A DNA stretch of 2,799 nucleotides, from assembly GCF_003334355.1 (NCBI RefSeq), contig NZ_QOWP01000071.1. The stretch is one strand, 5' to 3'. A program made the position numbers and the translations under genes. This document shows positions 1 to 1,016 of this stretch, in pieces. Source of the stretch: Escherichia coli. Lineage in GTDB: Bacteria; Pseudomonadota; Gammaproteobacteria; Enterobacterales; Enterobacteriaceae. Below the pieces are notes generated by a model. That model was given only the letters and a program-made list of their open reading frames with translations, was not told where the DNA came from and did no database searches. The first letter of the stretch is position 1. Every line of letters starts with the position of its first letter.

Positions 1-62
1 AATCGGTGGAGCTGCATGACAAAGTCATCGGGCATTATCTGAACATAAAACACTATCAATAA
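1..62 (+). CDS. insB: IS1 transposase InsB, C-terminal fragment (5' part lies outside the window)
   Basis: In-frame codons 3..59 followed by TAA at 60-62; peptide [20 protein letters not shown] matches the remembered InsB C-terminus. No start codon in window. Confidence 0.85.
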   Translation, partial: SVELHDKVIGHYLNIKHYQ

Positions 63-77
63 GTTGGAGTCATTACC
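55..77 (+). repeat. IS1 terminal inverted repeat (IRR), about 23 bp
   Basis: atcaataagttggagtcattacc is the reverse complement of the canonical IS1 end GGTAATGACTCCAACTTATTGAT; an exact inverted copy lies at 2669-2691. Confidence 0.9.
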
Positions 78-275
78 AGAAAATCGTTGTCCGTTAACTT
101 CCATATTAGCATAGAGATAACGCTTACATTTCATTAATGCCCATGGTAAATAGATACCTAGCGTTATAATCGTTAACAACACATTCACCACACAAATAAG
201 AAAATATCTCTCACCTGTACCATGAAAAACAAACGAATGGGACGGAACATCCATTTCATTAATAACTTGAGCCAT
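78..275 (-). pseudogene. yjgN: 5' fragment (66 codons) of an inner-membrane protein gene, probably yjgN (DUF898-type), truncated by the IS1 insertion at 77/78
   Basis: Minus-strand ATG at 273-275 opens a frame MAQVINEMDVPSHSFVFHGTGERYFLICVVNVLLTIITLGIYLPWALMKCKRYLYANMEVNGQRFS with a clear hydrophobic helix (YFLICVVNVLLTIITLGIYLPWAL). It runs without a stop straight into the IS1 repeat (..RFS|[13 protein letters not shown]..). Position divergent from yjgM fits the K-12 order argI-rraB-yjgM-yjgN as I recall it. Missing from the supplied ORF track, presumably because it has no stop in the window. Confidence 0.6.
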
Positions 276-285
276 AAAAATTCCC

Positions 286-311
286 TGAATTAAAAAATTC
301 ATTGATATAAT
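286..311 (+). promoter_or_regulatory. Candidate sigma70 extended -10 element (TGaTATAAT, 303-311) directly preceded by a TGAAT-N6-ATTCA palindrome (286-301) in the yjgN/yjgM divergent control region
   Basis: Exact TG-n-TATAAT at 303-311 on the + strand, oriented towards yjgM; no good -35, as is common for extended -10 promoters. A second perfect TATAAT lies at 437-442, 25 bp upstream of the yjgM ATG. Assignment is by sequence pattern only. Confidence 0.3.
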
Positions 312-467
312 TTATAGATACAGACAGTAAAATGTTCTGCCACGTTACAATACTCTTATCAGTAATAGGCTAGCAAAAACTTTATTGCTTTATAAGACGC
401 TTGCGCACGTAAGAAGAGAGTGGTATTAAACAAATGTATAATTACTTTATTTTTATTGGGTTAAACT

Positions 468-972: not shown

Positions 973-1006
973 AAAATGCCCGCTAGTGTGTGCTATCGGG
1001 CATTTT
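973..1006. terminator. Bidirectional intrinsic terminator between convergent yjgM and rraB
   Basis: Perfect inverted repeat AAAATGCCCG (973-982) / CGGGCATTTT (997-1006) around a 14-nt loop; the A-run on one side and T-run on the other give a U-tail in both transcription directions. Lies in the 45-bp gap between the two stop codons (971 and 1017). Confidence 0.7.
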
Positions 1007-1016
1007 AATCAATTAA

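Follow-up and report, generated by a model that had tools for sequence, protein, structure and literature searches.

Insertions of IS1 are among the commonest polymorphisms found in Escherichia coli and Shigella. Here we consider a 2,799-bp stretch of E. coli DNA, referred to throughout as the window, which is bounded on each side by the end of an IS1 copy, both directed inward. The question raised by this locus is whether transcripts leaving the two elements change the expression of the genes that lie between them. A sequence-only reading had suggested that RNA leaving the left copy could enter yjgM, an acetyltransferase gene, in the sense direction, and that RNA leaving the right copy could run antisense into the 3' end of argI, the gene for ornithine carbamoyltransferase (OTCase), such that the expression of either might be subtly altered. 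If outward transcription did alter yjgM or argI, it would constitute one more regulatory change driven by an insertion sequence and not a new principle.

Gene content of the window

On the basis of annotation and synteny, the window derives from the E. coli chromosome and matches the gene order of K-12, namely yjgN-yjgM-rraB-argI-yjgL. Its interior, delineated by positions 78 and 2668, aligns with uninterrupted E. coli loci with an identity of 99.8%, and the span between the two inverted IS1 ends is 2,591 bp. The gene yjgM, which encodes a GNAT-family N-acetyltransferase of 167 residues, extends from positions 468 to 971 on the + strand. It converges with rraB, which occupies positions 1017 to 1433 on the - strand and encodes the 138-residue RNase E inhibitor protein B. 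Both assignments follow from the open reading frames and the RefSeq annotations. Positioned between the two genes is an inverted repeat (976 to 1005) with runs of T on both sides. The resulting hairpin has calculated folding energies of -13.7 (+ strand) and -14.2 kcal/mol (- strand), and it is probably a bidirectional intrinsic terminator.

The third interior gene, located at positions 1595 to 2599 on the + strand, codes for the 334-residue OTCase. It is labeled argF by the RefSeq PGAP annotation, and K-12 synteny, together with the reading frame and the annotated function, identifies it as argI. By exact look-up, the ArgI protein allele is very common. A predicted promoter for the gene, with the hexamers TTGCAA and TAAATT separated by a 17-nt spacer, is found at positions 1526 to 1554 on the + strand. 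With a position-weight-matrix score of 11.09 bits, it is the top-scoring sigma-70-like site in the window. An Rfam search of the window for known RNA families returned none at E<=0.3.

A 2,902-bp draft contig (GCA_003293365.1) is 99.93% identical to the entire window, and both of its ends likewise fall inside IS1. Indeed, the window and this contig extend just 77 to 166 nt into the IS1 copies. The window thus looks like a repeat-bounded contig from a short-read assembly, and because both sequences terminate inside IS1, the DNA beyond the IS1 ends is not visible in it. A short contig bounded by IS1 in this manner conceals what lies outside. Plasmid-borne copies of the segment were considered as well; the matches were to large or chromosome-like records and to F' plasmids carrying argF, none of which is shown as an IS1-bounded module.

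Identity and orientation of the IS1 ends

Positions 1 to 77 and 2669 to 2745 form inverted repeats of 77 nt that are 97% complementary. The left copy (1 to 77, + strand) is represented by its right, insB-proximal end (IRR), and is 100% identical to, and colinear with, the final 77 nt of an annotated complete 768-bp IS1A-type element from E. coli E47. The transposase coding sequence of the E47 element lies on the same strand as the left copy and stops at a position equal to window position 62. In agreement with this, translation of the left copy reveals the last 19 codons of insB followed by the stop codon TAA at positions 60 to 62, with the element ending at position 77 (...GTCATTACC). The right copy (2669 to 2799, - strand) aligns in reverse to the IRR side of the same IS1, sharing 98.5% identity with the terminus of that 768-bp element, and the complement of its insB stop codon is found at positions 2684 to 2686. 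The terminal sequence of IS1 is GGTAATGACTCCAACTTATTGATAG....

In both copies the insB stop codon, as judged by translation, is positioned 15 nt from the tip of the element. Both encode the C-terminus of InsB, ...SVELHDK(V/I)..., finishing with HYLNIKHYQ*. This C-terminus and its stop codon lie inside the right inverted repeat, as they do in the annotated E47 transposase coding sequence; the window does not reach insA or the frameshift site. The portions of IS1 that can be seen amount to 77 nt on the left and 131 nt on the right, with the promoter-bearing IRL ends falling outside the window.

Alignment places the left IS1 on the + strand with its exit at position 77, because it is colinear with the E47 IS1 end and the transposase coding sequence runs on the same strand. 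The right IS1 is placed on the - strand with its exit at position 2669, because positions 2669 to 2799 align to the IS1 end in reverse. The arrangement proposed by the sequence-only reading is thus correct: the left copy points in the sense direction toward yjgM and antisense to the remaining portion of yjgN, and the right copy converges on argI. Note that the orientation of an insertion sequence is a binary property, and hence there is nothing statistically remarkable about two copies facing inward. The two copies differ at positions 2714 and 2722, which leads to a single V-to-I change in InsB, and the right one is nearest to IS1SD-type copies (99.2%). On account of these differences and this relationship, the two IS1 copies are not fresh duplicates of each other.

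The elements resemble any simple chromosomal insertion of IS1, as can be seen from the terminal sequence, the insB stop codon inside IRR, the 9-bp target duplication in yjgN that emerges from comparison with E47, and the A+T-rich target. Nothing unusual is found here; compared with IS1A, the right copy has two base changes.

The left junction and the region upstream of yjgM

The left IS1 interrupts yjgN. Adjacent to it, at positions 78 to 86, lies one copy of a 9-bp target-site duplication, AGAAAATCG. In E47 the sequence AGAAAATCG is present on both sides of IS1, uninterrupted genomes contain one copy, and the window shows one with the second lying outside. The junction is 100% identical over 298 nt to that of E47, which is a simple insertion of a complete IS1 with a 9-bp duplication. 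According to the K-12 annotation, synteny, and translation, positions 78 to 275 on the - strand correspond to the 5' fragment of yjgN, 198 nt comprising its first 66 codons. The fragment reads on into the IS1 end to form a 92-residue fusion reading frame, whose stop codon, as seen in the E47 reading frame, would lie just past window position 1. The exact 92-residue fusion protein is found in 18 public contigs, where it carries the name "inner membrane protein [Escherichia coli]".

A set of 5,426 complete E. coli genomes contains two with the exact yjgN junction in the orientation of the window and six with IS1 in the opposite orientation at the identical 9-bp target. There is no sign in these small numbers of an orientation preference, or of selection for orientation, at this target. 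In many other complete E. coli genomes, IS1 is present at a different place in yjgN or within yjgL. In one public contig, IS1 is located at the same yjgN site but adjoins a sulfatase gene in place of the remainder of yjgN, which suggests an IS1-associated rearrangement at the locus. Strain TUM9757 has no IS1 here, and in its genome both genes are pseudogenes by point mutation, with yjgN containing an internal stop codon and yjgL being frameshifted. These pseudogenes and the many IS1 insertions in both genes suggest that yjgN and yjgL are dispensable. For annotation the lesson is that yjgN and yjgL have been struck by IS1 repeatedly and that the interior genes are unaffected.

The region between the left IS1 and the yjgM start codon at position 468 is, as had been stated, 390 bp in length (78 to 467). 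Of this, positions 276 to 467 constitute the native divergent yjgN-yjgM intergenic region, which is 192 bp long with a G+C content of 28%. A position-weight-matrix scan predicts promoter-like sites within it on both strands, namely TATAAT at 306 and at 437 on the + strand, and TTGCTA (376-371) paired with TATTGT (352-347) on the - strand. The segment from 78 to 1028 is identical to that of the IS1-free strain TUM9757, with divergence from 1029 on, and by this sequence identity yjgM retains its full native 192-bp upstream region. The bases 299T and 372A within the segment had appeared specific to this lineage in a comparison of 23 loci and were entertained as a relaxed or adaptive change. Both are present in TUM9757. 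Because TUM9757 is identical over 78 to 1028 and diverges from 1029, the pattern is that of an ordinary recombination mosaic.

Since the insB stop codon is only 15 nt from the end of the element, any transcript covering the whole of IS1 is bound to continue into flanking DNA. Folding of the + strand between positions 78 and 467 revealed no convincing intrinsic terminator; the sole candidate is a hairpin of -7 kcal/mol at positions 84 to 123. According to the list of open reading frames, this same stretch contains no translated gene on the + strand. Between positions 131 and 235 the + strand is composed of 22-27% C and 8-13% G, and RNA that is rich in C and poor in G is the type upon which Rho acts, so this region could be a Rho target. 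IS1 is known for its Rho-dependent polarity.

The left junction itself does not create a convincing hybrid promoter. The best candidate, TTACCA and TAACTT with a 16-nt spacer, scores 6.2 bits (6.16), an ordinary value that 13% of the fusions simulated between the IS1 end and E. coli sequence also attain. In this scoring no good -10 hexamer was found at the right spacing.

The right junction and the argI hairpin

The right IS1 is located inside the 3' end of yjgL, four codons before its stop. Alignment with uninterrupted loci and the gene calls assign positions 2656 to 2668, on the - strand, to the 3' terminus of yjgL, comprising its final four codons and the stop (...I T A *). One copy of a putative target duplication is visible in the window. 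A junction-specific BLAST search gave no single-piece match in the 5,426 complete E. coli genomes, and an exact 40-mer spanning the junction was absent from species-representative genome contigs and from metagenome contigs.

Positioned between argI and the convergent yjgL is a hairpin (2616 to 2647) with a 10-bp stem and a 12-nt loop, which is present in all uninterrupted relatives. Its calculated folding energy is -19.0 kcal/mol on the + strand and -16.4 kcal/mol on the - strand. On the + strand the stem is followed by the tail CACATTATTTTAT, in which a U-run, AUUAUUUU, begins 2 nt past the stem. The tail on the - strand is (TC)TTTATAGCGA, also given as UCUUUAUA or UCUUUAUAGCGA, and its U-tract is interrupted; the description of a weak T-tract on this strand was accurate as written. 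A consensus terminator scan missed the hairpin on account of its 12-nt loop. Where no insertion is present, yjgL ends with its stop codon 8 nt away from the stem. The predicted structure would function as a native bidirectional terminator, or barrier, between argI and yjgL. As the hairpin natively faced a convergent yjgL, the right IS1 has replaced, or stands in series with, an existing convergent unit, and argI is not newly exposed. If the remainder of yjgL lies beyond the right IS1, its transcripts would enter IS1 in the sense direction and exit toward the same hairpin.

The weight matrix also predicts a promoter-like site across this junction on the - strand (2653 to 2682). Its -35 hexamer, TTGGAG (2682-2677), is contributed by IS1, and its -10 hexamer, TAAAAT (2658-2653), by the flank, with a spacer of 18 nt. 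The predicted start, at approximately 2646-2647, coincides with the base of the hairpin. With a score of 10.35 bits, the site ranks second among the - strand sites of the window and lies within the top 0.45% of 27,964 simulated IS1-IRR fusions. The uninterrupted sequence, which contains the same -10 hexamer and 18-nt spacer preceded by TGGAAG or TGGAAT, already scores 8.85 bits, so the insertion adds little, approximately 1.5 bits. A fusion promoter at this junction had been considered as a real novelty and was downgraded once the empty site gave 8.85 versus 10.35 bits. The -35 hexamer matches the consensus at three of six positions, the spacer is 18 rather than 17 nt, and a stricter promoter consensus scan reported nothing at the right junction. 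Additionally, binding of InsA to IRR might occlude the -35 hexamer.

Transcription out of IS1

Published reporter measurements bear on how much RNA leaves an IS1 element. A lacZ transcriptional fusion placed right after the insAB' stop codon of a native chromosomal IS1E gave ~1.1 units, and with InsA repression abolished the same fusion gave 18.5 units (PMC12903888). The IS1 promoter has been called extremely weak and is repressed by InsA (PMC12903888; PMC12428005). The terminal 600 bp of IS1 yielded no YFP in a study in which IS2 and IS3 did drive its expression; IS1 was described there as a context-dependent half-promoter with an activity set by the 20 bp adjoining the insertion, and a hybrid promoter, IS1-p0, was documented (PMC5526668). 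Other IS1 fusion promoters, those of Prentki (1986) and Goussard (1991), are listed in PMC9330008. Genomic transcription originating upstream can also traverse IS1 (PMC12428005).

These reporter values come from other IS1 copies, namely IS1E and IS1A of K-12, and by analogy with them outward transcription from the copies in the window would be weak. With upstream genomic transcription reported to run through the element (PMC12428005), a strong promoter beyond either copy could raise the outflow.

Taken together, these observations make it highly probable that the window represents the native yjgN'-yjgM-rraB-argI segment between two independent IS1 insertions with their IRR ends inward, and that the net effect on the expression of yjgM and argI is most likely nil or very small. 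One IS1 is located in codon 66 of yjgN and the other four codons before the stop of yjgL. The insertions inactivate or truncate two flanking genes that are probably dispensable, leaving the three interior genes with their own promoters and terminators. Outward transcription is real in principle, because the insB stop codon is 15 nt from the end of the element with no terminator inside, and it is expected to be very weak. A transcript from the left would have to cross 390 nt as an untranslated antisense RNA, in part rich in C and poor in G, against a yjgN promoter that appears still intact. A transcript from the right would have to pass the hairpin that is predicted to have natively stopped yjgL transcripts. 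It is this combination of a very weak outflow with obstacles on both sides that argues for an effect that is nil or very small. The geometry put forward by the sequence-only reading is borne out, whereas the altered expression is without support, given the weak published outflow from IS1, the intact region upstream of yjgM, the native hairpin, and the lack of a -10 hexamer at the left junction. The features are real, the IS1 biology is standard and already known in kind, and the arrangement is ordinary.

Two alternatives would have RNA reach the interior genes from the junctions. In one, transcripts from IS1 or from an outer promoter pass through the left copy and raise yjgM, and those passing through the right copy escape the hairpin and run antisense to the 3' end of argI, thereby changing OTCase. 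The orientations are as such a scheme requires, IS1 mRNA ends in the flank by virtue of the position of the insB stop codon, transcription entering from upstream genomic DNA reportedly crosses IS1 (PMC12428005), the + strand from 78 to 467 lacks an intrinsic terminator, and the - strand U-tract past the argI hairpin is weak. Yet the outflow from a native IS1 is ~1 LacZ unit (PMC12903888), and the IS1 terminus alone gives no YFP (PMC5526668). Moreover, the 390-nt untranslated stretch contains a region with C in excess of G that may be a target of Rho, the yjgN promoter faces the left transcript head-on, the hairpin has a folding energy of -16 kcal/mol on the - strand and already faced yjgL, and both orientations of IS1 are found at the same yjgN site. 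We consider this explanation very unlikely. In the other, the fusion promoter at the right junction initiates a - strand RNA at ~2646-2647, which would be either short and terminated by the hairpin or a cis-antisense RNA over the 3' end of argI. Its score of 10.35 bits, in the top 0.45% of the 27,964 simulations, approaches the 11.09 bits of the predicted argI promoter, and IS1 fusion promoters are documented (PMC5526668; listed in PMC9330008). The empty site with the same -10 hexamer nevertheless scores 8.85 bits, the -35 hexamer has only three of six matches with a spacer of 18 instead of 17 nt, the stricter scan is empty there, and InsA bound to IRR could occlude the -35 hexamer. The RNA would, in addition, start at the base of the -16 kcal/mol hairpin and then enter its U-rich tail. 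This possibility is likewise very unlikely.

The remaining alternatives are concerned with mobility. The inverted pair of IS1 copies might turn the 2.6 kb that carry yjgM, rraB, and argI into a module capable of inversion, deletion, or mobilisation, akin to a composite transposon and much like the IS1-flanked argF of K-12. Two IS1 ends in inverted orientation do bound the segment, IS1 composite elements such as Tn9 are known (PMC12428005), K-12 argF lies between IS1B and IS1C, and the public contig with the sulfatase gene suggests IS1-associated rearrangement at the yjgN site. Against this, the inner junctions are in their native context, the left one equals a simple insertion that has a 9-bp duplication of its own in E47, and the right one was found neither among the 5,426 complete E. 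coli genomes nor in species-representative genome and metagenome contigs. We regard such a module as most improbable. More improbable still is a composite proposal. In it, the insertion near the yjgL stop codon would boost a latent promoter (TTGGAG from IRR, TAAAAT from the flank), so that a cis-antisense RNA arises at the base of the argI terminator hairpin; were this RNA to escape the hairpin, it would pair with the 3' end of argI and tune OTCase. The inverted pair would separately make argI-rraB-yjgM a nascent mobile or invertible module, in a parallel to the way argF acquired its flanking IS1 copies in K-12.

Comparison with related systems

The preferred explanation, two independent insertions with little or no effect on the genes between them, can be set beside other systems in which IS elements flank or activate genes. 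The right junction resembles the IS1 fusion promoters upstream of blaTEM-1, blaTEM-6, and acrEF, and the IS1-p0 promoter, in having an outward -35-like hexamer containing TTG at 8 nt from the IS1 end and a -10-like hexamer 18 nt downstream in the flank. It differs in that the site is a prediction from sequence, the ancestral site scores nearly equally, and what follows it downstream is not a gene in sense but argI in antisense behind a hairpin. The left junction, in contrast, faces a real gene but is without a suitable -10 hexamer. A likeness also exists to IS481 in Bordetella pertussis, IS150 in the E. coli long-term evolution experiment, and IS2 and IS3, in that an IS sends transcripts into an adjacent gene. 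Those elements have complete outward promoters with measured activity, whereas IS1 alone gave no signal beside IS2 and IS3.

Composite transposons of the Tn9/Tn1681 type share with the window the bracketing of a passenger segment by two IS1 copies, here with inverted ends and 2,591 bp between them. Several observations argue against movement as a unit, short of disproving it, as the outer ends are not visible: the inner junctions are native, the left IS1 equals the simple insertion of E47 with its separate duplication, and searches of the complete E. coli genomes and of species-representative genome and metagenome contigs did not recover the right junction.

The argF region of K-12 (IS1B ... 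argF-argL-ykgS-IS1C) likewise has an OTCase gene bracketed by two IS1 copies. The IRR end of its IS1C points in the sense direction at argL-argF from ~260 bp upstream, as the left IS1 does toward yjgM. In K-12, however, the IS1 copies are direct repeats located 10.7 kb apart within the cryptic prophage CP4-6, whereas the pair in the window is inverted, with a spacing of 2.6 kb, and flanks argI at its native location. K-12 argF is a paralogue of argI, with a DNA identity of ~79%.

Insertion of IS1 into yjgN and yjgL

The left IS1 of the window abuts a 9-bp target in yjgN, AGAAAATCG (window 78-86), which is likewise located at positions 3992-4000 and 4769-4777 of locus L002 and at positions 4301-4309 and 5078-5086 of locus L003. 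At this target, IS1 is found in the orientation observed in the window in two complete E. coli genomes, and in the opposite orientation in six. The presence of both orientations, each in separate E. coli genomes, means that IS1 has inserted independently at this exact site at least twice. Many further E. coli genomes carry IS1 at other positions in yjgN, and also in yjgL, and thus the yjgN/yjgL locus looks like an IS1 hotspot.

Two of the loci display variations on this arrangement. In strain HS-01 (L001, 4001-4560) the same yjgN site is occupied by a degenerate IS1, shortened and frameshifted, with an identity of only ~91-94%, which points to an insertion of greater age or else to another isoform of IS1 at the hotspot. 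In GCA_900094025.1 (L015, 6214-8621) a sulfatase gene and a further transposase lie beyond the IS1 at the yjgN site in place of the 3' part of yjgN, which suggests an IS1-associated deletion or rearrangement here. Elsewhere, point mutation has disabled the same two genes that IS1 interrupts in the window. Specifically, in strain TUM9757 (L024, 5790-6986 and 9382-10897), which lacks IS1 here, yjgN contains an internal stop and yjgL a frameshift.

The left junction creates a yjgN'::IS1 fusion reading frame of 92 residues on the minus strand (window 1-275), composed of 66 YjgN residues followed by 26 encoded by the antisense of insB. It is entered at NCBI as an "inner membrane protein." Both the promoter and the start codon of yjgN are intact and would drive the reading frame. 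RNA transcribed from the fusion would be complementary to the 3' end of the transposase mRNA.

Origin of the window

A sibling draft contig of 2,902 bp (GCA_003293365.1, NRWB01000195.1; L021, 1-2902) matches the whole window with 99.93% identity, and both of its ends likewise lie within IS1. The window is thus probably a repeat-bounded short-read contig.

From position 78 to 1028 the window is identical to TUM9757. This stretch includes the rare alleles 299T and 372A, which are shared by only one of the 4,622 complete genomes matching it (5,426 searched). From 1029 to 2668, there are 21 differences from TUM9757, and the sequence matches instead the allele of L004 and L006, two loci without the IS1 insertion. 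The window is therefore a mosaic, which indicates a recombination breakpoint near the 3' end of rraB.

Comparison with K-12

The yjgM-rraB intergenic region measures 144 bp in K-12 versus 45 bp in the window, and the alignment of the two breaks exactly at this gap (window 984-1012; K-12 locus L023, 4394-4523). The additional ~100 bp in K-12 probably represents a small repeat or an insertion adjoining the shared hairpin terminator.

At a second K-12 locus (L025), the insB end of IS1C (13635-14402) is aimed in the sense direction at argL-argF (12302-13371) from ~260 bp upstream of them, a geometry that is the same as that of the left IS1 of the window relative to yjgM. Copies of IS1 thus flank a gene for ornithine carbamoyltransferase at two unrelated locations.
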